A stretch of 37,708 nt of DNA. Origin: Flavobacteriales bacterium. Lineage in GTDB: Bacteria; Bacteroidota; Bacteroidia; Flavobacteriales; BACL11. Made by a program: the position numbers and the translations under genes. Shown piece after piece: positions 368 through 34,409 of this stretch; position 1 is the stretch's first letter, and the number at the start of each line of letters is the position of its first letter. Below the pieces are notes generated by a model. The model was not told where the DNA came from. It saw only the letters and a program-made list of their open reading frames with translations, and did not search any database. The DNA lies in NCBI GenBank assembly GCA_002683775.1, contig NYTT01000067.1, positions 1-37,708 on the forward strand, in the 5' to 3' direction.

Positions 368-691
368 TTATAGAGAAAAGCTTTCTCCGCATCCACATGT
401 TCTGTTGGCATTAGGATTATTAAATACAAAGCCTTTACCGTTAAGGCCGTCAGAGAACTCCAAAGTTGTTCCAACTAAATATAAATAGCTTTTCTTATTA
501 ACTAATAGTTTGATACCATTGTCTTCAATTAGCTCATCATCATCTTTTTTTGCATTATCAAAGTCTAATTTGTAACTTAAACCCGAGCATCCACCACTTT
601 CAACTCCAACTCTAACAAATTGATTATTGGAACTTTCTTTATCAAGTAAATAAAGCAGTCTATCTTTAGCTTTGTTATTAATATTAATCAT
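368..691 (-). CDS. sufA: HesB/IscA-family A-type iron-sulfur cluster carrier
   Basis: 107 aa. Has the GGCSG motif and the C-terminal CGCGESF motif of the IscA/SufA/ErpA family. Sits immediately upstream of sufB on the same strand. Confidence 0.85.
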   Translation of the reverse strand: MININNKAKDRLLYLLDKESSNNQFVRVGVESGGCSGLSYKLDFDNAKKDDDELIEDNGIKLLVNKKSYLYLVGTTLEFSDGLNGKGFVFNNPNANRTCGCGESFSL

Positions 692-719
692 TTATTTAAT
701 CTAAATCTATATAGAGATG

Positions 720-727
720 CAAAAATA
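720..727 (-). promoter_or_regulatory. Bacteroidota-type -7 promoter box TATTTTTG for sufA-sufB
   Basis: Exact TAnnTTTG on the minus strand, 28 nt upstream of the sufA ATG (691). Confidence 0.45.
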
Positions 728-749
728 ATAAATAAAAATTGTATTTATA

Positions 750-757
750 TATCTTTG
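750..757 (+). promoter_or_regulatory. Bacteroidota-type -7 promoter box TATCTTTG for thiL
   Basis: Exact TAnnTTTG, only 4 nt before the thiL ATG at 762. This implies a leaderless or near-leaderless mRNA if the box is used. Confidence 0.4.
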
Positions 758-761
758 CAAT

Positions 762-1814
762 ATGAAAATATTAGAAGACAAGTCATTAAAAACAACCCCA
801 ATAGACACATTAGGAGAATTTGCATTAATCGATCATTTGACTAAAGACATCAAATTAGAGAACTCAAGTACAATTTTAGGAATTGGTGACGATGCATCTG
901 TTATAGACAAAGGCGATAAGTATTCATTGTTAAGTACAGACTTATTAATAGAAGGTGTACATTTTAATTTAGCTTATTCGCCATTAATGCATTTGGGTTA
1001 TAAATCAGTAGCTGTTAATGTATCTGATATATGTGCAATGAATGGTTGCGCAAAACAAATTACAGTAGGACTAGCAGTAAGTAATCGATTTACAATTGAA
1101 GCACTTGAAGAATTATACGAAGGTATTAAATTAGCTTGTAAACATTATGGTGTCGATTTAGTAGGTGGAGACACTTCCTCTTCAACTTCTGGTTTAATGA
1201 TTAGCATTACTGTACTTGGTGAAGTAGAAAAAGATATTATCACATATAGAAGTGGTGCAAAAATTAATGATTTGGTTGTTTGTACAGGAGATCTTGGAGC
1301 AGCTTATCTTGGGCTTCAACTTCTTAATAGAGAAAATGAGATATTTAAAGATAACCCAACAATTCAACCTGATTTAGGAGGTAATGATTATATTCTAAAA
1401 CGTCAATTAAAGCCTGAAGCTTCAGTTAAATACATAAAGATTTTAAAAGAATTAAATATTATTCCTACATCAATGATTGATATCTCTGATGGTCTTTCAT
1501 CTGAAGCCCTACATATATCAAAAGCATCATCGGTTGGTTTAACTATACATGAAGATAAAATCCCAATTGACCATACAGTTATGAATTTATCAGCTGAATT
1601 TAAAATTAATCCAATTGTATGTGCATTAAATGGTGGTGAAGATTATGAATTACTTTTTACGGTAAATCAACAACATTATGATAAATTAAAAAAAGATCCA
1701 GATTTTACAATTATTGGATTTGTTAATGATCAATCTCAAGGTAATAATTTTATTGCAACTGATGGGTCGTCGCATCAATTAACTGCTCAAGGATGGGACC
1801 CAATAAAGAAATAA
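762..1814 (+). CDS. thiL: Thiamine-monophosphate kinase
   Basis: 350 aa with the AIR-synthase-related fold signature: GEFALIDHL, GIGDDASVI, LLSTDLLIEGVHF, GYKSVAVNVSDICAMNG, GGDTSSS. Confidence 0.85.
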   Translation: MKILEDKSLKTTPIDTLGEFALIDHLTKDIKLENSSTILGIGDDASVIDKGDKYSLLSTDLLIEGVHFNLAYSPLMHLGYKSVAVNVSDICAMNGCAKQITVGLAVSNRFTIEALEELYEGIKLACKHYGVDLVGGDTSSSTSGLMISITVLGEVEKDIITYRSGAKINDLVVCTGDLGAAYLGLQLLNRENEIFKDNPTIQPDLGGNDYILKRQLKPEASVKYIKILKELNIIPTSMIDISDGLSSEALHISKASSVGLTIHEDKIPIDHTVMNLSAEFKINPIVCALNGGEDYELLFTVNQQHYDKLKKDPDFTIIGFVNDQSQGNNFIATDGSSHQLTAQGWDPIKK

Positions 1815-1827
1815 TGTTTAATCATAA

Positions 1828-3117
1828 TTAACTTCTCATTAAGGATTCGATTTCTTCAATCTCAATTGGAATGTTTTTCATTAAATCATGTGGTCCTTCT
1901 TCAGTAACTAATATATCATTCTCTAATCTAATTCCAAGATTTTCTTCTTGTATGTAAATACCTGGTTCACATGTAAATACCATGCCTTCTTTCATTATCC
2001 ATTCCATACTGCCTACATCGTGGACATCTAGCCCTAAATAATGTGATGTTCCATGCATAAAGTATTTTTTATAAAGAGGTTTTTTTACATTCTGCTTCAT
2101 AACATCATGTTTGTCTAATAACTTTAGATTAATTAGTTCTAACTCCATCATTCTGCCAATTTCTTTATTATATTCTTTAAAATTTGTACCTGGAGTTAGC
2201 ATTTTTGTAGCTTCTTTCATTACGTGCAGAACTGAGGTGTAAACTTCTTTTTGTCTACTAGTATATTTTCCGTTTACTGGAACTGTTCTAGTTAAATCTG
2301 AAGCATAATTGGCATATTCTGCTCCAAAGTCCATTAATAAAATATCACCATCTTTACATTCTTTATTATTGTCAATATAGTGTAAAACACAAGAATCAAA
2401 ACCTGATCCAATTATGGGTTGATATGCAAACCCATTTGATCTGTTGCTTAAGAATTCATGCATTAATTCTGCTTCTATTTCATACTCCATTATTCCAGGT
2501 TTAATTAATGGAAGTATTCGTCTTAATCCTTTTTCTGTTAAATCACAAGCATTTTGTAATAGCTCGATTTCAAATTTTGATTTAATAGCACGTAATTCAT
2601 GCATAATAGGAGCTACAGTAAATATTTTTTTATTTGGAAAATTTTTACAAATTTTTATCTTAAAACGGTCATCTCTTGTTTGAACATCTGAAGCGGATCT
2701 ACTATGAATATTTTCATTTAAATATATACTGTCTGCTACTGAAATTAATTCATTTAATTTATTGTCTAATTCATCTAACCAAAAAACGGTTTTTACCCCT
2801 GAAATTAGATGTGCTTTGTTTTTATCTAATTTTTCTCCCTCCCAAATTGCAATATGTTGATTTGTTTCTTTTAAAAATAAAACCTCTCTCATATTTTGAT
2901 TTGGGTGATCAGGAAAAATAACAAGTACACTTTCCTCTTGATCAATTCCAGAAAGCCAAAAAAGATCATTGTTTTGTCTAAAAGGCATTGTCCCATCGGC
3001 ATTTGTTGGCATTACATCATTAGAATTTAATATGGCCATTCCATTACGTGATAATTTAGAAAAAAATTTTTCTCTATTTTGTACAAACAATTTACTGCTA
3101 ATTTGTAAGTATTTCAT
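1828..3117 (-). CDS. Xaa-Pro aminopeptidase (M24B family, PepP-like)
   Basis: M24 pita-bread metal-ligand context is present (DFGAEYANYASDLTRT, HGTSHYLGLDVHD, EPGIY, RLEND). The track ORF starts at 3159. I prefer the ATG at 3117 (MKYLQISSKLF...) because a -7 box at 3135-3142 lies inside the longer version. Confidence 0.8.
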   Translation of the reverse strand: MKYLQISSKLFVQNREKFFSKLSRNGMAILNSNDVMPTNADGTMPFRQNNDLFWLSGIDQEESVLVIFPDHPNQNMREVLFLKETNQHIAIWEGEKLDKNKAHLISGVKTVFWLDELDNKLNELISVADSIYLNENIHSRSASDVQTRDDRFKIKICKNFPNKKIFTVAPIMHELRAIKSKFEIELLQNACDLTEKGLRRILPLIKPGIMEYEIEAELMHEFLSNRSNGFAYQPIIGSGFDSCVLHYIDNNKECKDGDILLMDFGAEYANYASDLTRTVPVNGKYTSRQKEVYTSVLHVMKEATKMLTPGTNFKEYNKEIGRMMELELINLKLLDKHDVMKQNVKKPLYKKYFMHGTSHYLGLDVHDVGSMEWIMKEGMVFTCEPGIYIQEENLGIRLENDILVTEEGPHDLMKNIPIEIEEIESLMRS

Positions 3118-3134
3118 TTCATTTGAGTTTAATT

Positions 3135-3142
3135 CAAAAATA
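3135..3142 (-). promoter_or_regulatory. -7 promoter box TATTTTTG for the aminopeptidase gene
   Basis: Exact TAnnTTTG on the minus strand, 17 nt upstream of the ATG at 3117. Confidence 0.4.
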
Positions 3143-3223
3143 GTAAAATTACTCATCAATCTGTAATCGTTCTTAATTAGAATTTTTATAGCTATGAATG
3201 TTCTGAATGTAAAATTTGAGCAG

Positions 3224-3231
3224 TATATTTG
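3224..3231 (+). promoter_or_regulatory. -7 promoter box TATATTTG for sdhCAB
   Basis: Exact TAnnTTTG, 22 nt upstream of the ATG at 3254. It lies inside the longer track ORF that starts at 3194. Confidence 0.45.
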
Positions 3232-3253
3232 TAAACTAATTAAAAAATTTAAA

Positions 3254-3931
3254 ATGAGTCACGGTATATCAAATTCATCAGTAGGAAGAAAATTTTTAAT
3301 GGCGCTATCAGGATTTTTTCTAATGTTTTTTTTAGCCCAACATTTGGCTATAAATTCTTTATCACTTTTCAGTAAAGATTTATTTAATGAGGTATCTCAT
3401 TTTATGGGAACAAATCCATTAATACAATTTGTCTTACAGCCGATACTAATTTTTGGAGTAGTATTTCATTTACTTATGGGTATGTATTTAGATAGTCAAA
3501 ATAAATCTGCTAGACCAATCAAATATGCTGTCGATAATGCTAGTGAAAATTCGAATTGGCTAAGTAGAAATATGTTAATTACTGGTGTAATGATTTTATT
3601 ATTTATGTTACTTCACTTTTATGATTTCTGGATTCCTGAAATTACCACTAAGTTTATAAATGGAGATTGGTCTGGCATACACAATGGAGAGTTCAGATAC
3701 TGGGAAGAACTTCATCATAAATTTCATAATTTAGTTAGAGTTATTATTTATTGTATCGCATTTATTTCACTTGGTCTACACTTAGCTCATGGATTTCAAT
3801 CTTCTTTTCAATCTGTGGGGTTCAATAATAAACATTCGAGTACAATTAAGAAACTAGCTAATCTGTATGCAGTAATAATTCCTTTAGGGTTTATTTTTAT
3901 TGCTTTATTTCATTACTTTACTTCACTCTAA
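3254..3931 (+). CDS. sdhC: Succinate dehydrogenase / fumarate reductase cytochrome b subunit (b558 family)
   Basis: Polytopic membrane protein with conserved His in successive helices (AQHLAIN, VFHLLMG, LLHFYDF, LHLAHGF). Directly precedes sdhA and sdhB. Start moved to 3254 ([14 protein letters not shown]...) on the promoter-box evidence. Confidence 0.8.
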
Positions 3932-3941
3932 AAATTATAAT

Positions 3942-5957
3942 ATGTCGATTTTAGATTCTAAAATACCTAAAGGCCCTTTAAAAGATAAGTGGACCAATCA
4001 TAAAAACAATATTAATTTGGTAAGCCCTGCAAATAAAAGAAACATTGATATCATTGTAGTTGGGACTGGATTGGCAGGTGCATCTGCCTCTGCATCTCTT
4101 GCTGAGATGGGATACAATGTTAAAGCTTTTTGTTATCAAGATTCGCCTAGAAGAGCACATTCAATTGCAGCTCAAGGAGGTATCAATGCTGCAAAAAACT
4201 ATCAAAATGATGGAGATTCTATCTATAGGCTTTTTTATGATACTGTCAAAGGAGGTGATTATCGATCAAGAGAAGCAAATGTTCATAGATTAGCGGAAGT
4301 TTCTGGAAATATAATTGATCAATGTGTTGCTCAAGGAGTCCCTTTTGGAAGAGAATACGGTGGGCTTTTAGATAATCGTTCGTTTGGAGGAGTACTAGTT
4401 TCAAGAACTTTTTATGCGAAAGGTCAAACTGGACAACAACTTTTGTTAGGTGCATATTCTGCTATGAATCGACAAATTGGTAAAGGAAAAATTCAGATGT
4501 TTAACAGACATGAGATGGTTGAATTAGTTAAAGTTAATGGAAAAGCTCGCGGGATTATCGCCAGAAATTTAGAGACAGGAAAATTAGAAAGGCATGGAGC
4601 TCACGCTGTAGTAATTGCTAGCGGAGGATATGGCAATGTGTTTTTTTTATCAACAAACGCAATGGGATCAAATGTAACTGCCGCATGGAAAATTCATAAG
4701 AAAGGAGCATATTTTGCAAATCCGTGTTATACTCAAATTCACCCTACATGTATACCTAGAAGCGGAGAACATCAATCTAAATTAACATTAATGTCTGAGT
4801 CATTAAGAAATGATGGGAGAATTTGGGTTCCTAAAAAAATTGAAGATGCCAAGTTAATTAGACAAGGAAAATTAAAACCAACAGAGATTAGCGAAGAAAA
4901 TAGGGATTATTACTTAGAAAGAAGATACCCTGCTTTTGGTAATTTAGTTCCGAGAGATATTGCATCAAGAGCTGCGAAGGAGATTTGCGATGCTGGATTT
5001 GGAGTGAATCAAACTGGAGAGGCTGTTTATTTAGATTTTACATCAGCAATAAAAAGATATGGAAAGCAAGAAGCAGCTATACAAAGACTAGAAAATCCAT
5101 CTGAAAGTAAAATTATTGAACTTGGAGAAGTAATTGTTGAATCTAAGTATGGAAATCTTTTTCAAATGTATGAGAAAATTGTTGCACAAAATCCATATAA
5201 ATCTCCAATGATGATTTACCCAGCTGTTCATTATACAATGGGTGGTGTTTGGGTTGATTACAATTTAATGACTTCAGTTGAAGGTTGTTATTGTATTGGA
5301 GAGGCAAATTTTTCAGATCATGGAGCAAATAGGTTAGGAGCATCTGCACTCATGCAAGGATTAGCAGATGGTTATTTTGTTTTACCCTATACTATTGGAG
5401 ATTATCTTTCAAATGAAATTAGAACTGGTAAAATATCAACAGATACATCTGAATTTGAAGATGCTGAAAAGTCTGTTGCCGATAGAATACGTAAGCTAAT
5501 TAATATTCAAGGTACTAAATCCGTAGATCATTTTCATAAATTGTTAGGTCAAGTAATGTGGGAATATGTTGGCATGACTAGAAATGAGAAAGGGCTAAAA
5601 ATTGCAATGAAAAAGATTAAAGAAATTCGCGATGAATTTTGGAAAGATTTAAGAATACCTGGAGATCAGTTTTCTTTAAATTCCGAACTTGATAAAGCTG
5701 GTAGAGTTGCAGATTTTTTAGAACTAGGAGAACTTTTTGCTAAAGATGCGTTAAGTAGGAACGAAAGTTGTGGTGGTCATTTTAGAGAAGAATCAGTTGA
5801 GTTAGATGGGGCACAAAAAGGAGAAGCCAAAAGAAATGATAAAGATTATGCTTACGTTACTGCATGGGAATATAAAGGCGAACCCGAAAATTCAAAAATG
5901 CACAAAGAGGAATTAGAATTTAATGATATTGAATTAAAACAAAGATCTTATAAATAA
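3942..5957 (+). CDS. sdhA: Succinate dehydrogenase flavoprotein subunit
   Basis: FAD-binding [11 protein letters not shown] and the [14 protein letters not shown] motif with the histidyl-FAD His. C-terminal [10 protein letters not shown]. The ATG at 3942 follows the sdhC stop (3929-3931); the TTG at 3900 in the track overlaps sdhC. Confidence 0.92.
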
Positions 5958-5962
5958 AAGCT

Positions 5963-6715
5963 ATGGATTTAACTTTAAAAGTTTGGAGACAGAAAAATAG
6001 AAATGCTCAAGGAGCTTTAGAAAAATATAATGTTTCAGGAATATCTGAAAATGCATCTTTTTTAGAGATGTTAGATGTTATGAATGAACAGCTAATAAAT
6101 GAGGGAACAGAGCCTGTAGCATTTGATCATGATTGTAGAGAAGGTATTTGTGGAAGTTGCTCACTTTATATTAACGGAGAAGCTCATGGTCCAGCAAAAA
6201 ATGTTACAACTTGCCAATTACATATGCGCATGTTTAAAGATGGTGAAACAATTTATATTGAGCCATGGAGATCTGCAGCGATGCCAGTAATTAAAGATTT
6301 AATTGTTGATCGATCTTCTTTTGATAGAATTCAGCAATCAGGAGGCTTTGTTTCAGTTAACACATCTGGTAATACTCAAGATGCAAATGCACTGCCTATT
6401 CCTAAGATGAACGCAGACAAAGCTTTTGACGCAGCTGCTTGTATTGGTTGTGGTGCTTGTGTCGCAACTTGTAAGAATTCATCAGCAATGCTATTTGTCG
6501 CGGCTAAAGTATCTCAATTTGCATATCTCCCTCAAGGTCAAGTAGAGGCAAAACAAAGAGTAAAGAATATGGTACAGCAAATGGATAATGAAGGATTCGG
6601 AAACTGCACAAATACTGGAGCCTGCGAGATAGAGTGTCCAAAGAGTATATCTATTGAGTATATTGCTAAAATGAATAGAGAATTTTTAGCCGCTACTTTT
6701 TCAACTTCTGAATAA
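5963..6715 (+). CDS. sdhB: Succinate dehydrogenase iron-sulfur subunit
   Basis: Three Cys clusters: [20 protein letters not shown] and [12 protein letters not shown]. Starts 5 nt after sdhA. Confidence 0.92.
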
Positions 6716-6719
6716 ATTA

Positions 6720-7496
6720 ATGCAAGAATTATTAAATTTATCACTACTGCAGTCAAAAATTTATTGGAAAGATATAGATGAAAATCTTCAGCATTTCTCA
6801 AATTTAATTTCTAGAATAGAAAATACAGATATTATTTTATTACCTGAAATGTTTAATACTTCCTTTTGCCCAGAATTTTCTCATTTAGCAGAAAGTATGG
6901 ATGGAAAAACAATTAAATGGATGCAAGCTGTTTCAAAAAAGAAAAATTGCATTGTTACAGGTACATTAATGATAAAAGAAAATGATAAAATATATAATAG
7001 ACTTGTTTGGATATCACCAAGCAGTGATATTATAACATATGATAAATGGCATTTATTTTCTATAATTAAGGAAAATAAGTATATCTCAAAAGGTAAAAAA
7101 CGTTTAATAGTTAGTGATTTTGGTTGGAAATTTTGTCCGTTAATTTGCTATGATTTACGTTTTCCTGTTTTTTCAAGAAATACTGAAGACTACGATGTTT
7201 TAATTTATTTGGCTAATTGGCCAAAAGCACGAATAGATGCATGGGACACACTTTTAAAGGCTAGGTCGATAGAGAATCAATGTTATACAGTAGGATTAAA
7301 TAGAATTGGTCAAGATGGAAATGGAACAGAATTTAATGGCCATTCCAAAGTTTTTGATGCTATTGGAAAAGAAATTTTTTCAGCTACTGATAATAAGGAA
7401 GATATCTTACAAGTTGTAATTTCAAAAAAATCTCTATCATACAAAAGAAATAAGATGAATTTTTTGAATGATCAAGATTCTTTCATTCTTTTATAA
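6720..7496 (+). CDS. Carbon-nitrogen hydrolase (nitrilase superfamily; YafV/omega-amidase-like)
   Basis: Glu-Lys-Cys triad context: LLPEMF, YDKWHLF, LICYDLRFP. Starts 4 nt after the sdhB stop, so probably co-transcribed with sdhCAB. Confidence 0.75.
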   Translation: MQELLNLSLLQSKIYWKDIDENLQHFSNLISRIENTDIILLPEMFNTSFCPEFSHLAESMDGKTIKWMQAVSKKKNCIVTGTLMIKENDKIYNRLVWISPSSDIITYDKWHLFSIIKENKYISKGKKRLIVSDFGWKFCPLICYDLRFPVFSRNTEDYDVLIYLANWPKARIDAWDTLLKARSIENQCYTVGLNRIGQDGNGTEFNGHSKVFDAIGKEIFSATDNKEDILQVVISKKSLSYKRNKMNFLNDQDSFILL

Positions 7497-8529
7497 TCCA
7501 TTCTATTTCTAGATTCCAATTTGAACGAATTAAAATTTCAGATTGATAATTAAATACTTTTTCAGGTTGTATCTGTTTCTGTAAGTTTCCAGTATTCCAA
7601 ATTTTATCTTCATTTCTATCCTCTATACATTTTAATTGATATTTTCCAGGTTCTATCGATTTGATTAAAAATGGTTTTTGATCAAAATAATGCTCAGAGA
7701 CAACTTTATTTTTCTGTAATAATTGAAAAATAGATGATGAATTAAGTTCAGTTATAATTTCTAATTGACCTAAGCCTACACTTTCTTTTCTTTGAATTAA
7801 AGAGTCCTTTTGAATATATAAATTTGAATCAATTTTTTCCTTAAAAGCAAGAAGTGAAATAAATGTATCGTTTACAGTATTTATTTTTCTATTTGAAAAT
7901 GCAATTTTTTCATCAGTATTAAAAATCAAATCAAATCCAGAAAGTGCTAGAATTTTATAATTCTCATTTATTAAGTTCGGAAAATGAAATCTTCCTTTTT
8001 TATCAGTTTTAGAAATATACTTTGGAGGATTTTTGATTAATAGTGAATCTTCAATTTTTTCGTCAAACAACATTATCCAGCAATTTTCTAAATATTCTAA
8101 AGTATATGAATCTTTTAAAACACCACTTAGTACAGTATGCTCTAAGTTATTATCATTATAAATAAAATTCAAGGTATCTAAGACATTTCCTTCGTTTATA
8201 TCTTTGATGCATTGACCTAAAGAAATATTGTAGCTTTTATTTTTATGTAATGTGTCTTTGATTGATAAGTAAAGAAATTTTCCGTTTATTTTTTTTTGTA
8301 AATTTTTTATTATTGGTGAAATGTAGAAGTTTTCGTCCCAATTATTCAGCTGTATATTTTCATCAAATTCAAATAAAATTACATTATCTAAAGATTTCTT
8401 GTCATTTTTTACAATTGTAATTTTTTTAATTTTAGGGGGATCTATATCTCTTTTGCCACCAGTTGGAGCGACGATATTTGCACAGCTTGTATGTAAAATG
8501 ATTATAAGGGTTAAGATTGATTTTTGCAT
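7483..8529 (-). CDS. Hypothetical lipoprotein with an Ig-like N-terminal region and a CarboxypepD_reg-like beta-sandwich
   Basis: Signal peptide with a lipobox-like ...LHTSC. The segment KTDKKGRFHFPNLINENYKILAL resembles carboxypeptidase-regulatory-like domains. The 3' end overlaps the convergent amidase gene by 14 nt. Confidence 0.55.
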   Translation of the reverse strand: MQKSILTLIIILHTSCANIVAPTGGKRDIDPPKIKKITIVKNDKKSLDNVILFEFDENIQLNNWDENFYISPIIKNLQKKINGKFLYLSIKDTLHKNKSYNISLGQCIKDINEGNVLDTLNFIYNDNNLEHTVLSGVLKDSYTLEYLENCWIMLFDEKIEDSLLIKNPPKYISKTDKKGRFHFPNLINENYKILALSGFDLIFNTDEKIAFSNRKINTVNDTFISLLAFKEKIDSNLYIQKDSLIQRKESVGLGQLEIITELNSSSIFQLLQKNKVVSEHYFDQKPFLIKSIEPGKYQLKCIEDRNEDKIWNTGNLQKQIQPEKVFNYQSEILIRSNWNLEIEWIIKE

Positions 8530-27097: not shown

Positions 27098-28336
27098 ATG
27101 AAATTTGACAACCTTAAGTTACATCCATTTTTACTTAAAGCAGTAAAAGATGAGGGATATATTAATCCTACAAAAATTCAAGAAAAAGCAATTCCACATA
27201 TCTTAAATAAGAAAGATATTCTTGGATCTGCTCAAACAGGTACAGGTAAAACAGCTGCTTTTGCATTGCCAATTTTACATCATATGATAGTTGATAAAAA
27301 TAAGCCTTCTTTTAAGAGAATAAATGTCTTAGTCGTAACCCCAACTCGCGAACTTGCTATTCAAATAGGTGAAAATTTCACTACTTACTCAAAATATACA
27401 GATATAAATAATACAGTAATATTTGGAGGTGTTAAACAGATTAAACAAACTGATAAACTAAAAAAAGGTATAGACATATTAATTGCAACACCAGGAAGAT
27501 TATTAGATCTTATGAGTCAAGGCTATATATCACTTAAAGATATATCATATTTTGTGCTGGATGAGGCTGATCGTATGCTTGATATGGGGTTTATTAACGA
27601 TATTAAAAAAATAATCGATAAATTACCAAGGCAGAGACAATCACTTTTCTTTTCAGCAACAATGCCAAATAACATCCTTAAACTTTCAAATTCAATATTA
27701 AATTATCCTGAAAAAGTCTCTGTTCATCAAACTTCAGCTACTGCTGAGACTATAGACCAACTTATTTACTACACAAACAAAAGTGACAAAAGAGCATTGC
27801 TTACTGATATTTTAAAAAACAAGGTTCTTTCTCAGGTATTAATTTTCTCTAGAACAAAACATGGTGCAGATAGGTTAGTTAAAAATCTTAAAAAGAAGAA
27901 AATAACAGCTGTTGCAATTCATGGAGATAAATCACAACCACAACGCCAGAGAGCATTAAAATCTTTTAAGAACAAAGAAGTAAGAGTTTTAGTTGCTACT
28001 GATATTGCTGCAAGAGGAATTGATATAGATAAATTAAATTTTGTAATTAATTTTGATATGCCCAATGAGCCTGAAACTTATGTGCATAGAATTGGAAGGT
28101 GTGGTCGAGCTGGAGAAAAGGGACAATCAATATCTATTTGTGAACCTGAAGAAAACATATACGCGAAAGATATAGAAAAATTAATCAAAGCATCTTTAAC
28201 TGAAATAAAGAATCATAAATTTCCTCAAACTGATTTACCAATGAATCCTCAACAGAGGAAAGAATTTGAAAAGCAAAAGCAGAAAAAGAAACAAGATTTT
28301 TTTGCTAACAGAAAAAAAAATAAAAGAACAAAGTAA
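27098..28336 (+). CDS. DEAD-box ATP-dependent RNA helicase (RhlE-like)
   Basis: Q motif (PTKIQ), AQTGTGKT, PTRELA, DEAD, SAT, HRIGRCGRAG, and a Lys/Arg-rich C-terminal tail. Confidence 0.9.
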   Translation: MKFDNLKLHPFLLKAVKDEGYINPTKIQEKAIPHILNKKDILGSAQTGTGKTAAFALPILHHMIVDKNKPSFKRINVLVVTPTRELAIQIGENFTTYSKYTDINNTVIFGGVKQIKQTDKLKKGIDILIATPGRLLDLMSQGYISLKDISYFVLDEADRMLDMGFINDIKKIIDKLPRQRQSLFFSATMPNNILKLSNSILNYPEKVSVHQTSATAETIDQLIYYTNKSDKRALLTDILKNKVLSQVLIFSRTKHGADRLVKNLKKKKITAVAIHGDKSQPQRQRALKSFKNKEVRVLVATDIAARGIDIDKLNFVINFDMPNEPETYVHRIGRCGRAGEKGQSISICEPEENIYAKDIEKLIKASLTEIKNHKFPQTDLPMNPQQRKEFEKQKQKKKQDFFANRKKNKRTK

Positions 28337-28341
28337 GACAG

Positions 28342-29373
28342 CTATTTATTTTTATTTAACATCATTATTTTATTAAAGTCAAACCCTTTTTCCCAATTTA
28401 ATGTTGTGAATATTGATGGAGATGTATTAAGTAATTCAAGAAAGGAAAAAAGAGGATTATTTTTAAATGAATTTTTTACTGAAAGCCATCTTATGCCAAT
28501 GCCAATTGTTGCTGTTTTATTTTCTACATAATGCCATAGATAAGAAGGGATAAAAATTATGTCGCCCTCATTTAGTGTAATCTCACATTTGGGAAGATAC
28601 TGAAAAGCAGAGTTGTTATTTTTATCAATATTATAAGGGTTAATATCTGATGATTTGGCAGGTGCTCGATTTACTTTAGGATTAAATATATAATGAGCAT
28701 TTTGATGCCAAATTAACCATTTTTTCTGCCCTCTTATTTGAACAAACAAATTTTCATTGCCAGCATTATGAATAGGTGTTTTTGTTTTCTTATTTCCAAT
28801 AAAAAGAACATGATGTTTTTTAAATTTTGTATCTCTAACATCGTTTAACCACTTTTGATTAAGACTAGTTTGTAATAGAGGGTAATTATCCAGTAATGGA
28901 TTAAATCTAGCATAATCTAATGAGTTGTTGTTGATTCCATCAATTATGTTTTTCAGATTCGAATTTCTAGGCTCTGATTCTATATTTTCTCCTAAATCAT
29001 CATGATTAGATAATAAAACTGGATGGTTACCAAAATTATCTTTAAAAAAAGAAAAATCCCAATGTTTAAAAGCATCCCAATTTTTGGCGCCATCACGTAT
29101 GACAAATGGGATCCCTTTTTTTATATAATGATCTTTTATTTTAGATGGACAGTAGTGTTTGTCAAGTTCATCTATTTTTAATATAGTTTTCGGATGATGT
29201 TTAACACTTGTATATATTTTTTTCTGAATTTTGGATTCCCATTTTTTAATAATAGAAAGAAGAGGTGGAAACCAGCCTAGAGTATGCTCGAGAACATATC
29301 TTACGCCAAAAGATAACTTAGTAAATGTTGGAATATCCTGAACTAAATTTTTATAATATTTATGAAAAGTCAT
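28342..29373 (-). CDS. FIH-like JmjC / cupin_8 2-oxoglutarate oxygenase homologue with an HxA...H metal site
   Basis: 343 aa. TKTPIHNAGNENLFVQIRGQKKW and EGDIIFIPSYLWHYVE align gaplessly to the FIH core ([35 protein letters not shown]). The upstream GIPFVIRDGAKNWDAFKHW is typical of cupin_8. Confidence 0.8.
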   Translation of the reverse strand: MTFHKYYKNLVQDIPTFTKLSFGVRYVLEHTLGWFPPLLSIIKKWESKIQKKIYTSVKHHPKTILKIDELDKHYCPSKIKDHYIKKGIPFVIRDGAKNWDAFKHWDFSFFKDNFGNHPVLLSNHDDLGENIESEPRNSNLKNIIDGINNNSLDYARFNPLLDNYPLLQTSLNQKWLNDVRDTKFKKHHVLFIGNKKTKTPIHNAGNENLFVQIRGQKKWLIWHQNAHYIFNPKVNRAPAKSSDINPYNIDKNNNSAFQYLPKCEITLNEGDIIFIPSYLWHYVENKTATIGIGIRWLSVKNSFKNNPLFSFLELLNTSPSIFTTLNWEKGFDFNKIMMLNKNK

Positions 29374-29408
29374 ATAAATTGGTCACCAAAGAATAATTTA
29401 AAACAATT

Positions 29409-29416
29409 CAAAAATA
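29409..29416 (-). promoter_or_regulatory. -7 promoter box TATTTTTG for the JmjC/cupin gene
   Basis: Exact TAnnTTTG on the minus strand, 35 nt upstream of the ATG at 29373. Confidence 0.35.
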
Positions 29417-29434
29417 ATTCTTCATAATCATAAA

Positions 29435-29451
29435 ACTATGCTTAGCATAGT
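29435..29451 (-). terminator. Weak hairpin downstream of the ABC transporter gene
   Basis: ACTATGC-TTA-GCATAGT (7-bp stem), 9 nt after the stop at 29461. On the minus strand it is followed by TTTATGATT. AT-rich, so of marginal stability. Confidence 0.3.
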
Positions 29452-29460
29452 AACGTATAT

Positions 29461-31197
29461 CTATATGACACTTTGAAAAGTAACTAAATCATAGTATCTA
29501 CCTTTTTGCTTAATAAGATCATCATGTGTTCCATGTTCAGCGATTTTACCATTTTCAATAACTAATATCTGATTTGCTTTTCTTATTGTACTTAGGCGAT
29601 GTGCAATCACAAAAGTTGTTCTACCTTTCATTAATTCATTTAGGCTTTTTTGAATCAATGTTTCGCTTTCTGTATCAAGGTTAGAAGTGGCTTCATCCAA
29701 AATTAGTATTTTAGGATTTGCTAAAATTGCTCTTGCTATTGCTATTCTCTGTCTTTGACCTCCAGAGAGTTTTACTCCTCGTTCACCAATTAATGTATCT
29801 AATCCTTTTTCAAAACGGTCAGTAAACTCATTCACATATGAAGAATGCACTGCATTTAACAATTGATCTTCATTTGCATCAGGTCTTGGAAATAAGATGT
29901 TTTCTCTGATTGTCCCTTCAAATAAAAAATCATCTTGTAAAACAACACCTAAATGACTTCTAAATGATTTTAAATCTATTTTTGCAAGATTGCTTTCATC
30001 AACATAGATAGAGCCTGAAATAGGGGAGATAAAACTTGCAATTAAAGAAGCTATTGTTGATTTTCCAGAACCTGAAGATCCAACTAAAGCAGTTACAGTT
30101 CCTTTTTGTGCATTAAAACTAATATTATTAACAACCTCTTTCCCCTTATCATAAGCAAAAGATACATTTTGAAACTCTACATTGCCTATTACATTTACAA
30201 GTTTAATATTTCTATTAAGATTGTCGTACTCTGAAGAAATATTCATTAGTTCATTAGTACGATCTAGTCCGGCAAATGCTTCAGTTAGCTGACTGCCAAT
30301 ATTACTCATTTGAACAATAGGGGCTATCATAAAACCTAATAATAAAGTAAAAGATAAAAAATCTCCAGTTGTAAGATTCCCTTCAATGATCATTTTCCCT
30401 CCCACCCCCATTATACCTACTGATGCAAGCCCTAATAAAAATGCTGATGAACTTGTCATGATTGCAGTTGCTGTTAAACTCTTTTTAACATTTTCAAATA
30501 ATTTTTTAACCCCTAATGAAAAACTCTCACTCTCTTGATGTTCTGCGTTAAAACCTTTTATAACTCTTACTCCGTTCATAGTTTCTGTCAATCTCCCATT
30601 TACTTCAGCATTAATTTGGCCTCTTTTTCTAAAAATAGGTCTGATATAGCCAAAGGCTTTAATTGCAATTACCGCAAATAGAAGTACAGGCGTCAATACT
30701 AATAATGTCAACTCTACACTTATATTTAATAATAATAATAAGGATATGATTGCAGTAATTGATCCGCCAAATAGTTGGACTAATCCAGTTCCAATAATAT
30801 TTCTAACCCCTTCAACATCCGTCATGATTCTTGAAACCAAAGCTCCCGATTTATTATTGTCAAAAAAAGATATTGGTAAAGACAGCATTTGCTTTTGAAC
30901 TTTAACTCTTAATTTTGAAATTAACAATTGAGCTTCGACACTTAACAATCTCGCTAATGCAAATGATGTTACAGATTGAATAAAAATAGCACTGGCTACA
31001 ATTATTACTAAATAAGCTAGTGCTTCTAAATCTTTATTTGGGATTATAACATCTAATAGTTCTTTACTTTTTAATGGCAACACTAAACTTGATAATCTAC
31101 TAATTACAATTAGAAGTAGTCCAGTTAATACAATCCATTTTCTAGGCCAAATAAACTCTTTGAATGCTTGTTTTACAGTTGTTTTGTTTTTTGTCAT
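29461..31197 (-). CDS. ABC transporter, fused permease/ATP-binding protein (MsbA/MdlB-type exporter half-transporter)
   Basis: 578 aa. Six N-terminal TM helices, Walker A GSSGSGKST, signature LSGGQRQR, Walker B ILILDEATS, H-loop AHRLST. No N-terminal C39 peptidase domain. Confidence 0.9.
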   Translation of the reverse strand: MTKNKTTVKQAFKEFIWPRKWIVLTGLLLIVISRLSSLVLPLKSKELLDVIIPNKDLEALAYLVIIVASAIFIQSVTSFALARLLSVEAQLLISKLRVKVQKQMLSLPISFFDNNKSGALVSRIMTDVEGVRNIIGTGLVQLFGGSITAIISLLLLLNISVELTLLVLTPVLLFAVIAIKAFGYIRPIFRKRGQINAEVNGRLTETMNGVRVIKGFNAEHQESESFSLGVKKLFENVKKSLTATAIMTSSSAFLLGLASVGIMGVGGKMIIEGNLTTGDFLSFTLLLGFMIAPIVQMSNIGSQLTEAFAGLDRTNELMNISSEYDNLNRNIKLVNVIGNVEFQNVSFAYDKGKEVVNNISFNAQKGTVTALVGSSGSGKSTIASLIASFISPISGSIYVDESNLAKIDLKSFRSHLGVVLQDDFLFEGTIRENILFPRPDANEDQLLNAVHSSYVNEFTDRFEKGLDTLIGERGVKLSGGQRQRIAIARAILANPKILILDEATSNLDTESETLIQKSLNELMKGRTTFVIAHRLSTIRKANQILVIENGKIAEHGTHDDLIKQKGRYYDLVTFQSVI

Positions 31198-31508
31198 TTA
31201 TTTCATTTCAAATTCAACAACCCATTTATCAATTGAATAAAGTACTTTTTGCAGAGCTTTTGCTGACTTTGTAAGTGAGTATACAACTCTTGGTGGAGAT
31301 TCATTAAATGATTCCCTTTTATAAGATTGTCAACCTCTAATTGCTTAAGATGATCTGTAAGAACTTTTCGTGAAATTCCCTCAATTAAATTTGCTAATTG
31401 ACCAAAACGTAAATCTTTATTGCGAAGATTATAGATGATTGTTAACTTCCATTTACCTCCAACTTTTTTGTTAAAAATACTTGCTGTACATTTACTATTT
31501 TCCTTCAT
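31198..31508 (-). pseudogene. HxlR (DUF24)-family winged-helix transcriptional regulator interrupted by a 1-nt frameshift
   Basis: The N-terminal 63 codons (MKENSKCTASIFNKKVGGKWKLTIIYNLRNKDLRFGQLANLIEGISRKVLTDHLKQLEVDNLI) are canonical HxlR. The canonical C-terminus KRESFNESPPRVVYSLTKSAKALQKVLYSIDKWVVEFEMK* is encoded in the -1 frame after the T4 run at 31317-31320. It ends at a TAA (31198-31200) that abuts the ABC transporter ATG. Confidence 0.8.
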
Positions 31509-31512
31509 ATTA

Positions 31513-31593
31513 TTATTAGTTACATTAATATTACTAGTTTTTTAAAGTTACTTATTTGTTACAGTTACTTTATATTACTTTTATTAGTTACTT
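31513..31593. repeat. Array of same-orientation RTTAC(T/A) repeats, probable operator sites, in the divergent promoter region
   Basis: AGTTACTT occurs at 31546, 31563 and 31586, and AGTTACAT at 31518. GTTACA occurs at 31558, and ATTACT at 31530 and 31574. The 11-mer TTATTAGTTAC occurs at both 31513 and 31581. Confidence 0.5.
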
Positions 31594-31595
31594 TG

Positions 31596-31603
31596 CAAAA
31601 CTA
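31596..31603 (-). promoter_or_regulatory. -7 promoter box TAGTTTTG for the HxlR-ABC unit, back to back with a near-consensus plus-strand box TTACTTTG (31588-31595)
   Basis: Exact TAnnTTTG on the minus strand, 87 nt upstream of the HxlR ATG. The two boxes share the palindrome TTTGCAAA (31592-31599). Confidence 0.35.
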
Positions 31604-31623
31604 TTAAATAAATATTAATTAAA

Positions 31624-32304
31624 ATGAAAATTAAAATGAAAGAATCATCAAAAAGAGCGAAATGTCAATGTGGAAAAACTAAAGATCCAAATGGCAATTG
31701 TGATGGATCACATGCGAATACAAACAGAATTATTAAATCTATTTTATTTACTCTAGTAATTTTTGCTGGATCTGTATTTTATGCTAATGCAACTAGTCTA
31801 GTTAAAGAAAACAAAATCGATGTTAAAGAAAGTACTGTATTCTGGAAAGGGCATAAAGTTACAGGAAGTCATGAGGGAGAAATAAATGTAGCTTCCGGTT
31901 CTCTATTATTTGAAAATAAAAAATTAACTGGTGGTGAAGTTATAATCGATATGAACTCATTAGTATGTACAGATTTAACTGGAGAATACAAAGGAAAACT
32001 CGAAGGACATCTAAAGTCGGATGACTTTTTCAGTGTTTCTAAGTTTCCAAGAGCTACATTAAAAATAGTTAAAGTATCTTTAGTTAATGAAAACACATAT
32101 GAGTGTATGGCTGAATTAAATATTAAAGGACATACGGAAGAAGTATATTTCAATACAACTATTAAAAAGAACGGTGCATTGACTAAACTTAAAATTGATA
32201 GAACAAAATTTAATGTTAAGTATGGTTCTGGAAGTTTTTTTAAGGGATTAGGAGATAATATGATCTATGACGAATTTGATTTAGTGATAAACTTATCATT
32301 TTAA
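31624..32304 (+). CDS. YceI-family (polyisoprenoid-binding-like) protein with an N-terminal CDGSH-like Cys3His motif and a membrane anchor
   Basis: The C-terminal ~170 aa match YceI (VTGSHEGEI, IDMNSL, LEGHLKSDDFFSVSKFPRATL, IKGHT). Residues 14-30 are CQCGKTKDPNGNCDGSH. Residues ~36-56 (IIKSILFTLVIFAGSVFYANA) are hydrophobic. Confidence 0.8.
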   Translation: MKIKMKESSKRAKCQCGKTKDPNGNCDGSHANTNRIIKSILFTLVIFAGSVFYANATSLVKENKIDVKESTVFWKGHKVTGSHEGEINVASGSLLFENKKLTGGEVIIDMNSLVCTDLTGEYKGKLEGHLKSDDFFSVSKFPRATLKIVKVSLVNENTYECMAELNIKGHTEEVYFNTTIKKNGALTKLKIDRTKFNVKYGSGSFFKGLGDNMIYDEFDLVINLSF

Positions 32305-32310
32305 CAGTAA

Positions 32311-33183
32311 ATGAAACGTCCAGATTTTATTAAAAAATCTATATTGGGTATTTTTTCTGGTTTATTAATACCTAAAGTATCATCATCAGTACAAAAAATA
32401 AATACTAGTTTTAATATTTTAAGAAAAAATATAGGATTTAATCATATGCCAAATAAAGAAAATAAAACTAACAACACTGTAATTCACAAAGCTAATTCAA
32501 GAAATAGCGCTGACTTTGGTTGGTTAAAAGTTAACCATACTTTCAGTTTTGCAAACTATTATAATCCAGATAGAATGAATTTTGGAGCACTTAGAGTACT
32601 TAATGATGATACTATTTTAGGAGGTAAAGGATTTAGTACTCACCCACATGATAATATGGAAATAATTACAATTCCGTTGGAGGGCTCCCTAAAGCATAAA
32701 GATGATATGGGGAATGGAAGTGTTATTAAGAAAGGAGATATTCAAGTTATGAGTGCAGGAAAAGGTATTCAACATAGCGAATATAATGGAGATGATATTT
32801 TGCCGGCCAAAGTACTTCAAATATGGCTTCATCCAAATAAAATAAATGTTATTCCACGTTATCAGCAATTATCAATAAAGTCACTTATTAAACCAAATAT
32901 ATTTTCACAAATACTTTCTCCTGACATTAAAGACCAAGGAGTTTGGATTCATCAAAATTCATGGTTTAGTTTAGGAGAATTTACAAAAACTACTACTTCG
33001 AATTATAAATTACATTCAACTTCCAATGGCATATATATTTTTATTATAGATGGTAAGGTTGAAATAAATGGAGATATATTAAACAAACGCGATGCTATTG
33101 GTTTATGGCAGGTTGATTCAATAAATATTTCTAGTTCAATTGGGAGTAGAGTACTAATTATGGAGGTTCCAATGAATGTTTAG
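32311..33183 (+). CDS. Pirin-family protein (bicupin) with a 45-residue N-terminal extension
   Basis: The pirin core runs from FGWLKVNHTFSFANYY through HPHDNMEIITIPLEG...MSAGKGIQHSEYN. The ATG at 32311 is 6 nt after the yceI-like stop. An alternative start at 32446 would give a standard-length pirin. Confidence 0.8.
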   Translation: MKRPDFIKKSILGIFSGLLIPKVSSSVQKINTSFNILRKNIGFNHMPNKENKTNNTVIHKANSRNSADFGWLKVNHTFSFANYYNPDRMNFGALRVLNDDTILGGKGFSTHPHDNMEIITIPLEGSLKHKDDMGNGSVIKKGDIQVMSAGKGIQHSEYNGDDILPAKVLQIWLHPNKINVIPRYQQLSIKSLIKPNIFSQILSPDIKDQGVWIHQNSWFSLGEFTKTTTSNYKLHSTSNGIYIFIIDGKVEINGDILNKRDAIGLWQVDSINISSSIGSRVLIMEVPMNV

Positions 33184-33376
33184 TGAAATGGTAGAGGTAA
33201 AAAAATATAAAAGAAAAAAAAGTCTTAAAAAGACTCTTAATACTGTAATCGAAATTAAAAATAGTAGTCCAAAAATAATTTTTAAAGCAGAAAGTTTAGT
33301 TGTAACCTTAAGAAATAAAGCTCAATTAAACAGATGGTTAAAAATTTATCCTAACGCATGTTATACGATTAATTAA
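33176..33376 (+). CDS. Small basic hypothetical protein (66 aa)
   Basis: ATG overlaps the pirin stop by 8 nt. Lys-rich, with no recognisable motif. Could be a chance ORF in AT-rich DNA. Confidence 0.3.
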   Translation: MFSEMVEVKKYKRKKSLKKTLNTVIEIKNSSPKIIFKAESLVVTLRNKAQLNRWLKIYPNACYTIN

Positions 33377-33394
33377 TAAATTAAAAGTTTATGT

Positions 33395-33436
33395 AAAAAA
33401 GGAGCCCTAATAAGATTTTAGTGAGCTCTTTTTTTT
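33395..33436. terminator. Possible bidirectional terminator between convergent units
   Basis: A6-GGAGCCCTAA-TAAGATT-TTAGTGAGCTC-T8. The stem is interrupted (CTAA/TTAG plus GAGC/GCTC) and flanked by A and T runs. The T run overlaps the stop of the minus-strand M28 gene. Confidence 0.3.
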
Positions 33437-34409
33437 ATTCATTATAGATTACTTCCAAAAGAGTTTGTCCTACAGCATTAAGTGTGTTTTTGTCAATGTT
33501 ATCCATATCATCCTTATGGGTATGCCAGTATTTATTGAAATTAGTCTTAGTGGCTGGGTCGTATTCAATGATATCAATCGTTGGTATGCCTGTAATTGTA
33601 TTTACATAGTAATGATCATCAAGAATTTCATTAGCATCTTCAAAAATAAAATAATTACCATAACCTAATTTATTTGCTTTTCTCCAGACTTTTTGTAAAA
33701 CATTATACCCATAAGAAGCTGAAATTTTTTCGTGTCTAAAAGTAGCGTCTTTACCTCCAACCATATCTAACAAAATACCATATCTAGCATAATAATTGGG
33801 TTTATGTAAATTAGCACTCCAGTATTGAGAACCTAAGCACCAAGAATCTTGCATAAATGGGAATTTTGAATTTTCCGGCTGGCCATAATCTTCTGCATCA
33901 AAAAGGATAATATCAATTCCAATTTTTGGGTTCTTGATGCTAAAATTACGAGCTAATTCCATTAAAACTCCAACTCCACTTCCTCCATCATTTGCTCCAA
34001 GTATTGGGCGATTTTGGTTTTTAGTATCATGGTCAGCAATGTGGCGAGAATCCCAATGTGCAAAAAGGGCTATTCTATTGTTTTTTTCTGGAGAGAAACT
34101 TGCAATAATATTTTTTAGAGTATGATTTTTGCCATCATAAGTTCTGATCGGGGCTTCTTGTACGATTACATTTTGTGTGTAATTTTTGAATTTTTTTTCT
34201 AACCAAATAGCACAATTTTTCCACGCCTTTGATGAGATAACTCTAGGTCCAAAATTTACTTGTTTTTGAATGTAACTATATGCAGAGTCTGCATTAAAAG
34301 TAGGAACTTCAATTTTTACTTTCAGTTTTGAAACAGTTTCAGTTTTTTGCTTAGGTTCGTTGGTACAAGCAAAAATAAATAAAGTAGATATGATTAGCAC
34401 AACTCTCAT
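33435..34409 (-). CDS. M28-family zinc protein, glutaminyl-peptide cyclotransferase-like lipoprotein
   Basis: Lipobox LFIFAC. M28/QC metal-site context: FAHWDSRHIADHD, GANDGGSGVGVLMELAR, ILFDAEDYG, YWHTHKDD. Resembles the animal-type glutaminyl cyclases found as lipoproteins in Bacteroidota. Confidence 0.7.
   Translation of the reverse strand: MRVVLIISTLFIFACTNEPKQKTETVSKLKVKIEVPTFNADSAYSYIQKQVNFGPRVISSKAWKNCAIWLEKKFKNYTQNVIVQEAPIRTYDGKNHTLKNIIASFSPEKNNRIALFAHWDSRHIADHDTKNQNRPILGANDGGSGVGVLMELARNFSIKNPKIGIDIILFDAEDYGQPENSKFPFMQDSWCLGSQYWSANLHKPNYYARYGILLDMVGGKDATFRHEKISASYGYNVLQKVWRKANKLGYGNYFIFEDANEILDDHYYVNTITGIPTIDIIEYDPATKTNFNKYWHTHKDDMDNIDKNTLNAVGQTLLEVIYNE

Follow-up and report, generated by a model that had tools for sequence, protein, structure and literature searches.

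A putative one-cysteine HxlR/DUF24 regulator divergent to a CDGSH-like–YceI fusion gene, with pirin as a frequent partner, in marine Flavobacteriales

Regulators of the HxlR/DUF24 family carry a conserved sensing cysteine at the N-terminus of helix 1 (PMC3351151). This report concerns a block of six genes that includes a member of this family, at positions 28342–33376 of contig NYTT01000067.1 (assembly GCA_002683775.1, Flavobacteriales); the whole 37,708-nt stretch analyzed is referred to below as the window. It is contig C55 of a metagenome-assembled genome (MAG) of 1.17 Mb, 76% completeness and 30% GC, from a family of small-genome marine Flavobacteriales. What is conserved elsewhere is an hxlR gene divergent to a gene (here yceI) whose product joins a CDGSH-like motif, a transmembrane (TM) helix and a YceI barrel, with a pirin gene as a frequent partner. 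We propose, with a probability of roughly 0.6, that this one-cysteine HxlR/DUF24 protein controls an envelope YceI–pirin pair and, in this species, probably an adjoining ABC transporter gene as well. The unit would then best be filed as a variant of the YodB/CatR/QsrR/HypR thiol-switch regulons with an unusual pair of envelope effectors.

In Bacillus subtilis, the DUF24 repressors YodB and CatR, which control azoR1, yodC and the catDE operon, are likewise small winged-helix proteins whose sensing Cys stands at the start of helix 1, with a short detoxification operon beside them. Of the catDE products, CatD is a DoxX-like membrane protein. CatE is a ring-cleaving metal dioxygenase (PMC3351151), and this pairing of membrane protein and dioxygenase parallels that of a membrane YceI with a cupin dioxygenase-type pirin in the window. 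There are several differences: the effectors are a DoxX protein and a glyoxalase-fold dioxygenase there, YceI and pirin here; YodB and CatR use intersubunit disulfides with a C-terminal Cys, whereas the HxlR of the window has one Cys only; and the present host is Gram negative, with both effectors predicted to be in the envelope.

Staphylococcus aureus QsrR (structure 4HQM) is a member of the same family that also has one Cys, but is distant in sequence. Its single essential N-terminal Cys is S-alkylated by quinones. The QsrR regulon consists of cytoplasmic reductases and dioxygenases, and we know of no YceI, pirin or CDGSH-like partner for it. The HypR (YybR)–hypO and HxlR–hxlAB systems are close solved relatives with divergent or adjacent target genes, and the footprinted operator of HypR is a 16-bp inverted repeat (PMC3351151). 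Both of these regulators are activators, however, and HypR needs Cys14 and Cys49, while HxlR needs a Cys-x-Lys arrangement; the second residue of each pair is absent here.

The effectors also have described relatives. Escherichia coli YceI, Thermus TT1927b and Helicobacter HP1286 share the YceI barrel, its periplasmic position (predicted in the present case) and a pairing with a membrane redox component. In E. coli, yceI is in an operon with yceJ, which encodes a cytochrome b561, and YceI ligands are isoprenoid or lipid molecules. By comparison, the barrel in the window appears to be TM-tethered to a cytoplasmic Cys3His motif with no cleavable signal, and has no adjacent cytochrome b561 gene. 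E. coli YhhW (1TQ5/6UTS), a quercetin 2,3-dioxygenase, is the same bicupin as the pirin, with the same HxH...HxE ligands, but it is cytoplasmic and 231 aa long, while the window protein carries an N-terminal addition of 57 residues that includes a Tat-like signal and the conserved GFNHMPN sequence. CDGSH domains (mitoNEET, PF09360) share the C-x-C...C-D-G-S-H ligand set with the motif at the N-terminus of the YceI protein; here the spacing between the second and third Cys is longer by one, and the unit, of ~20–30 residues and mostly found as free mini-proteins, leaves no room for the beta-cap fold. Literature searches found no paper naming HxlR together with pirin or YceI, and none naming CDGSH together with YceI.

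The hxlR–yceI unit and its neighborhood

The hxlR gene (31198–31508, minus strand) and yceI (31624–32304, plus strand) diverge from a shared 115-bp spacer (31509–31623), and the pirin gene (32311–33183, plus strand) follows yceI. The remaining three genes, described in the last section, encode a JmjC-type oxygenase, an MsbA-like ABC exporter and a 66-aa protein (orf66). The original prediction for this DNA took all six, each of which is indeed present in the sequence, to form one quinone or electrophile system in which HxlR senses, the JmjC protein and pirin modify, the ABC protein exports and YceI binds.

To see what travels with yceI, its N-terminal motif was used as the seed for a scan of 185,579 species genomes, and the open reading frames (ORFs) around all 14 loci were clustered. 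Besides the window there are 13 loci with a motif–TM–YceI fusion, all in marine Flavobacteriales MAGs. An HxlR ortholog stands divergent and directly upstream in 11 of the 14; a Crp-like gene replaces it in the other 3, which are closely related to each other. A pirin with the same N-terminal extension as in the window is encoded directly downstream in 7 of 14, and an orf66 homolog is present in 3 of 14, while an ABC or JmjC gene adjoins the fused yceI in the window only.

Searches seeded with pirin and with HxlR avoid the bias of a YceI seed. Starting from pirin, a fused YceI gene is found upstream in 9 of the 16 closest loci; one of these ends at a contig edge before hxlR, and HxlR is present in all 8 for which both flanks are visible. 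HxlR orthologs (62–72% identity) occur in only five of 41 relatives (G000, G001, G005, G021, and G038), and in 5 of 5 they adjoin a fused yceI. In G001, from the same genus as the window, the 2.5-kb contig stops 50 nt into a yceI gene beginning MKNLFDQQKRNKCQCGKTKNPNG; this genome has hxlR–yceI without the ABC gene. Ordinary YceI paralogs are common in 40 relatives, but full-length matches that include the Cys-rich N-terminus were found only in G021, G005, and G038. In G005 (L051/L152, contig C7), hxlR–yceI lies directly beside thiL and sufA-sufB-sufC; the thiL and suf genes of the window itself (368–6715) are ~25 kb from the block.

These distributions bear directly on whether the six genes act together. 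Their contiguity, with the stop codon of hxlR touching the ATG of the ABC gene, is an argument that they do, as is the stability of the arrangement in six population contigs at 97–99.6% identity (see below); an ABC–JmjC link is also conceivable, from a same-strand cluster in genome G012 that holds both a JmjC paralog and an ABC ortholog. This is outweighed by the absence of ABC or JmjC genes near any of the 13 other fused-YceI loci or the 8 pirin-seeded module loci, by the 435 kb that separate the module from the ABC ortholog in G021, by the G001 hxlR–yceI pair that lacks ABC, by the KASIII/AMP-ligase/MMPL/epimerase context of JmjC orthologs, and by a hairpin and T-run between the ABC and JmjC genes. 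A single six-gene system is therefore largely refuted, and we regard it as very improbable. Of the neighborhood conservation that was to be looked for, hxlR and the fused yceI, optionally with pirin, do co-localize, while ABC, JmjC, and orf66 do not; the proposed parts of JmjC in modification and ABC in export within one system are not supported.

The regulator and the shared spacer

In the window, the hxlR reading frame changes at a run of four A (31317–31320). Three-frame translation bears out the earlier description of both this break and a restored stop: the second frame gives a canonical wing, ...RESFNESPPRVVYSLT...EFEMK, and ends in a TAA (31198–31200) that directly abuts the ATG of the ABC gene, with a junction of 0 nt. 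The shortened ORF of the assembly (31203–31508; Pfam HxlR, PF01638, E 7.5e-13) covers only positions 2–53 of the 91 in the Pfam HxlR profile. As a check on the population, metagenome contigs were scanned with a pattern accepting either T4 or T5 at this position. All six matching contigs, 88–99.6% identical to the window over 3.5–9 kb, carry A5 and an intact 103-aa HxlR, the same protein as that obtained by joining the two frames of the window; the junction between hxlR stop and ABC start is also identical in all six. Since the population carries an intact gene, the A4 run is either a homopolymer error of the MAG consensus or a private mutation, and the break is not a trait of the population. 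A programmed −1 frameshift at A_AAA_G was considered and rejected, as all six population contigs simply have A5.

It might still be that the break is real in this strain, making hxlR a pseudogene and leaving yceI–pirin, with or without ABC, constitutive or mis-expressed. The assembly does read A4, genes are often inactivated in nature by slippage in homopolymers, and the central palindrome of the spacer is degenerate as well, both in the window and in the related contig L128 (see below). With A5 in 6 of 6 independent contigs, a frame that is perfectly kept downstream of the run, and homopolymer errors being common in MAG consensus sequences, we consider this rather unlikely.

The 103-aa HxlR aligns end to end with EF0647, HxlR, YybR, and YodB. 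The closest solved structures are those of EF0647, B. subtilis HxlR (E 1.8e-15), PG0823, YybR/HypR, YtcD, YodB, and QsrR (S. aureus 4HQM, E 8.6e-6). Cys7, whose codon (31488–31490) is where it had been placed originally, is the only Cys of the protein; it is invariant in 11 orthologs, occupies the sensing position of the family and lines up with the Cys of the B. subtilis protein HxlR. The latter operates a formaldehyde switch through a Cys-Lys bridge. No second Cys is present in the 11 HxlR orthologs, and the Cys+2 position holds A, S, V, or T in place of Lys, which argues against both a two-Cys disulfide switch of the HypR/YodB type and a formaldehyde switch of the HxlR type. To judge from these alignments, a one-Cys mechanism like that of QsrR fits this protein best, and the sensing of quinones or electrophiles would suit a protein with one invariant N-terminal Cys.

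Whether such a protein represses or activates is a separate question. HxlR might activate yceI–pirin, as B. subtilis HxlR does hxlAB and oxidized HypR does hypO. The structure of B. subtilis HxlR ranks among the nearest solved ones, HypR activates from its 16-bp inverted repeat upstream of the target promoter (PMC3351151), and several of the spacer boxes described below are found upstream of the putative −7 element of yceI. Neither of the two activation chemistries seems available to the present protein: without Lys at Cys+2 a formaldehyde Cys-Lys bridge is impossible, and a Cys14–Cys49′ disulfide of the HypR type would need a second Cys, which is absent. In addition, boxes are spread over the entire spacer, also next to both start codons. 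QsrR, the one-Cys DUF24 protein whose structure was matched, is a repressor. Activation thus seems to us on the unlikely side, and repression is retained in the model proposed below.

The spacer itself is strongly conserved. An alignment of 11 orthologous spacers has 42 invariant columns, where the flanking proteins are only 50–70% identical. In the window, four copies of AGTTAC fall in a 69-bp part of the 115-bp spacer, all on one strand, compared with an expectation of ~0.06 per 115 bp and with 20 occurrences on both strands of the whole 37.7 kb. On the hxlR side is a first box (31519–31537), with the consensus GTTAC-N6-(A/T)AAC(T/C)AG in relatives. The central site (31547–31562) reads GTTAC-N6-GTTAC, corresponding to a 16-bp palindrome, GTTAC-N6-GTAAC, in relatives, and is abutted by a further AGTTAC (31563–31568). 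Closest to yceI is an invariant box, TTATTAGTTACTTTGCAAAACTA (31581–31603), written TTATTAGTTAC(T/C)TTG across relatives. The direct repeats originally pointed out in the spacer are therefore present, but they are this species' degenerate version of what are inverted repeats in its relatives, and it is because of this degeneracy that only direct repeats were seen.

GTTAC/GTAAC boxes are found at all 11 loci with HxlR. At the 3 fused-YceI loci where a Crp-like gene replaces HxlR, and at 3 Polaribacter loci, the region upstream of yceI has none. Beyond the module, the triple site of the spacer is unique in its own genome, and counts of the exact GTTAC-N6-GTAAC palindrome in G021, G005, G038, and G000 show no enrichment relative to a control with the pattern reversed; the only exact palindrome inside a module in that four-genome count is that of G038. 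A wider HxlR regulon was considered and set aside on these grounds, and the regulon looks local.

One contig deserves separate mention. L128 (UZWR01021787, corresponding to 29671–33140 of the window) is a mosaic: in ABC and hxlR it hardly differs from the window, while its yceI and pirin genes are the G021-type allele, with ~67–73% amino acid identity to those of the window. The switch between alleles comes directly after the invariant operator box. Recombination at the conserved spacer could account for this, or else the assembly is a chimera joined through a ~43-nt identical stretch.

The envelope proteins and the proposed mechanism

The N-terminal part of the predicted YceI protein reads KCQCGKTKDPNGNCDGSH, followed by a hydrophobic helix. 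It contains a CDGSH-like Cys3His motif at residues 14–30 (nt 31663–31713), predicted to be cytoplasmic, a TM helix at residues 34–55 (nt 31723–31788) and a YceI beta-barrel at residues 63–225; the Pfam YceI match (PF04264, E 9.1e-23) covers profile positions 2–150 of 150, and there are weak matches to PDB entries 5IXH and 7BWL. AlphaFold2 models the barrel with pLDDT 85–96 and recovers the helix at 34–55, with pLDDT 38–61 for the N-terminus (1–33). From this layout and the basic N-terminus, the protein is predicted to have its N-terminus inside and its barrel in the periplasm.

The three Cys and one His of the motif are invariant in 13 orthologs. In the window it reads C-Q-C-G-K-T-K-D-P-N-G-N-C-D-G-S-H, compared with C-x-C-x2-(S/T)-x3-P-x-C-D-G-(S/A/T)-H for PF09360: its spacing exceeds the canonical one by a single residue, and the Pro is displaced. 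A profile built from 39 examples matched 293 representative clusters among 1.84 billion proteins, mostly proteins of 25–120 aa, often with 2–3 tandem copies; the same profile also matches canonical CDGSH repeats, and proteins in which both spacings are mixed. The motif thus appears, by sequence comparison, to be a minimal relative of the CDGSH ligand loop, longer by one residue. A tandem relative from Opitutae scores 17.1 bits against a zf-CDGSH cut-off of 29.5, and NCBIfam (E ≤ 10) gave no usable model. None of the Pfam or NCBIfam models searched recognized this widespread mini-motif above threshold, and in that sense it is uncurated.

In most cases the motif forms a free mini-protein of 25–60 aa, in many phyla. 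The same motif is found in other settings. In Cryomorphaceae-like MAGs (L075, L087–L096; e.g., ORF 6909–8060), RicT/YaaT (PSP1) Fe-S proteins of 381–393 aa end in it (~20 residues). Among the database proteins P0036, P0138, and P0139, it is seen as three tandem copies behind an apparent organelle transit peptide and also appended to the C-terminal end of a sequence resembling ribosomal protein bS16. In Polaribacter (L062–L074; e.g., P. irgensii 23-P, L065:7881–8653), a lipoprotein YceI gene is followed within ~50 nt by a 29–30-aa ORF consisting of the motif, with the consensus MKxxKAxRPCGCGxTxDPNGNCDGSHAxK; no HxlR or pirin was found near these Polaribacter loci. The link between YceI and the motif is retained because it is seen both fused, in the marine Flavobacteriales MAGs, and split, in Polaribacter. 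A link of the mini-motif to ABC exporters was considered and rejected: ABCB-type genes 2–6 kb away in a few loci (L081/L084/L085, L101) are at chance level, as there are at least four such genes per small genome, and these are not orthologs of the ABC gene in the window. It is tempting to see in C-x-C-G-x-T-x4-G-x-C-D-G-S-H, of ~20 residues, an unrecognized minimal CDGSH-type metal or Fe-S module functionally tied to YceI, although we hold this as a tentative and, on balance, unlikely idea.

A related possibility is that the three-gene unit serves Fe-S/iron or envelope-lipid homeostasis rather than quinone or electrophile detoxification, with the Cys3His motif reporting cytoplasmic Fe-S or redox status, YceI handling menaquinone or undecaprenyl lipids, and HxlR responding to oxidants that damage Fe-S clusters. 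The kinship of the motif with the CDGSH 2Fe-2S loop, extending to matches of its profile to canonical CDGSH repeats, is consistent with this, as are its attachment to the known Fe-S protein RicT/YaaT elsewhere in the Flavobacteriales, the position of the G005 unit beside thiL and sufABC, and the recurrence of YceI with the motif as one fused protein or as adjacent genes. The suf adjacency is limited to one genome, however; the motif has low AlphaFold2 confidence and is below the Pfam threshold; and distant long pirins stand beside nitroreductase and DoxX genes, pointing to a quinone or nitroaromatic theme. We consider the homeostasis reading doubtful.

The second putative effector is a long-form pirin of the YhhW/quercetinase type (Pfam Pirin, PF02678, E 7.6e-31; Pirin_C_2, PF17954, E 8e-22). 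Its residues 58–287 match E. coli YhhW (1TQ5) with E 4.8e-53, and by Pfam and alignment it is a bicupin with an HxH...HxE metal site in its N-terminal domain. The preceding 57-residue extension consists of MKRPDFIKK, a hydrophobic stretch (together a Tat-like signal, ~1–26), and a conserved GFNHMPN; the pattern MKRxxF[IL]KK ... GFNH[ML]PN and the metal ligands (HPH...HSE) are conserved in 7 orthologs. More distant long pirins read R-K-x-F-L-K. The genome encodes TatC, and only one other ORF in it begins with a motif of the pirin type; this ORF carries a canonical NRRKFIK signal that closely resembles the pirin one in shape. Export of the pirin by Tat is likely from these features. Long pirins are widespread in Flavobacteriales, and distant ones adjoin AraC-type or Crp-type genes in addition to the nitroreductase and DoxX genes mentioned above. 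HxlR is strictly linked to YceI, and the long pirin comes next in about half of the loci, which suggests a common hydrophobic, redox-active ligand for YceI and pirin.

Around the gene order and the conserved spacer, a mechanism can be proposed, in which we infer the repression, the nature of the signal, the location of the proteins and their substrates. An HxlR dimer would bind the GTTAC-N6-GTAAC palindrome and flanking GTTAC boxes and repress both promoters. Modification of Cys7, by S-alkylation with a quinone or electrophile or by oxidation, would release it, as in one-Cys DUF24 proteins of the QsrR type, and the envelope YceI–pirin pair would then be made. On the outer side of the inner membrane, YceI might capture a hydrophobic ligand of isoprenoid, quinone or phenolic type, and the exported metal-cupin pirin might oxidize or cleave the ligand so held. 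In this species, the MsbA-like ABC gene would have been drawn into the hxlR transcript.

Several observations weigh against this proposal. The family includes activators (HxlR, HypR), which weakens the case for repression. The central palindrome is degenerate in this species (GTTAC-N6-GTTAC), in the window and in the L128 spacer. The invariant box (TTAGTTACTTTGCAAAAC) resembles TAnnTTTG, the Bacteroidota −7 promoter element, and part of the conservation of the spacer is probably due to promoter rather than operator. The pirin is an optional member, missing from half of the YceI loci, and its putative signal, K-R-x-x-F-[IL]-K-K, has KR-x in place of the RR of the Tat consensus (S/T)-R-R-x-F-L-K. 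Finally, Pfam gave no match to the motif of the window even at E ≤ 10, so that it fails the zf-CDGSH threshold.

Adjoining genes and wider meaning

On the other side of hxlR, the ABC gene (29461–31197, minus strand; Pfam ABC_membrane and ABC_tran) encodes an ABCB-type half-transporter. It scores 438 bits with the NCBIfam MsbA model TIGR02203, below the cut-off of 602, and appears to be a generic ABCB-type exporter that falls short of an MsbA lipid A exporter. With its ATG directly after the hxlR stop, the gene probably shares a transcript with hxlR in this species and would then be under HxlR control there. Among the genomes examined, this joining is limited to the present species: ABC orthologs (75–78% identity) were found in 7 of the other 24 family genomes sampled, none of them beside HxlR. 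In G008 and G002 the ortholog adjoins that of the DEAD-box helicase of the window, so this adjacency is older than the present arrangement. In G002 (contig C2, L118, 7881–8977) the helicase ortholog is split into ORFs of 179 and 190 aa, by a frameshift or an assembly error.

The cluster in G012 (L116; C31:4045–14282) consists of eight genes on the same strand, encoding a JmjC paralog, MMPL, epimerase, and MBL-fold proteins, a 427-aa protein with no Pfam match, KASIII and Acyl_transf_3 proteins, and the ABC ortholog; most of it is also present in G001 (L122). It is possibly a lipid or secondary-metabolite pathway.

The JmjC gene (28342–29373, minus strand; Pfam Cupin_8, E 3.7e-26) is separated from ABC by an 87-bp gap containing a hairpin with a T-rich tail (29435–29451, minus strand), a weak candidate for a terminator: it is the only terminator-like site in 28000–33700, but shuffled sequence averages 1.8 such sites, making the count not significant. 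Although the Cupin_8 fold matches, the protein lacks the facial triad H-x-D/E...H. It has H-x-A for H-x-D/E, as do all but one of 33 aligned homologs and both paralogs; the exception, P0001 (a 98%-identical cluster representative), reads H-N-T. The sequence HNAGN[ED]N has a conserved D/E five positions beyond the His (window; P0001–P0033; L116:13242–14282; L122:5860–6861). No close ortholog was found in 40 relatives. In the metagenome contigs read, orthologs (52–62% identity) adjoin MMPL, KASIII, AMP-ligase, and epimerase genes or lie in unrelated contexts, and none is beside HxlR.

These contexts raise the possibility that the left arm is a separate pair, in which the HxA JmjC protein modifies a lipid-like molecule and the MsbA-like ABC protein flips or exports it. 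JmjC orthologs and paralogs are repeatedly found beside MMPL, KASIII, acyl-ligase, and acyltransferase genes, and the G012 cluster opens with a JmjC paralog and ends with the ABC ortholog. A JmjC-family gene is near only 2 of 8 ABC-ortholog loci, however, and in the window ABC is joined to hxlR, not to JmjC. The KASIII/AMP-ligase/MMPL cluster, moreover, was not found in the 76%-complete genome to which the window belongs, apart from an MMPL homolog on contig C64 and FabH-level matches. We rate a separate JmjC–ABC pair as quite unlikely.

At the other end of the block, orf66 (33176–33376, plus strand) encodes a small basic protein of 66 aa with no family assigned; Pfam and NCBIfam searches at E ≤ 10 gave nothing usable. 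Homologs with 38–71% identity, in open frames of similar size, occur in 26 of 68 family genomes. The protein family (L135–L153) is restricted to this bacterial family, and its members are ~60–70 aa, basic, and share a C-terminal ...LVVTLRN..QL.RWL..YP...YT, in varied contexts. No module gene lies within 1.5 kb of the homolog in 18 of 19 loci inspected; orf66 is found beside or inside the module in L051/G005, L060, L156, L157, and L160. It is thus a real conserved small protein gene that is not specific to the module, and orf66 and the JmjC gene are neighbors with different contexts of their own, outside the HxlR unit. A genomic island or mobile origin for the block was considered and rejected, as no tRNA genes were found in the window and it shows no GC anomaly.

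As a caution on method, half of what seemed a coherent six-gene module is a species-specific juxtaposition. What is left is a testable HxlR/DUF24 regulon for uncultured, streamlined marine Flavobacteriales, with a candidate operator (GTTAC-N6-GTAAC), a putative one-Cys sensor and two predicted envelope effectors. If the motif is indeed a metal or Fe-S module tied to YceI, a protein under HxlR control would link the redox or Fe-S state of the cytoplasm with a periplasmic isoprenoid- or quinone-binding barrel and an exported pirin, which would amount to a trans-envelope redox-sensing or quinone-handling device without a described counterpart. The functions of YceI and pirin proteins are poorly understood everywhere, and a ligand shared by the two would help in assigning functions to two large "known-unknown" families.

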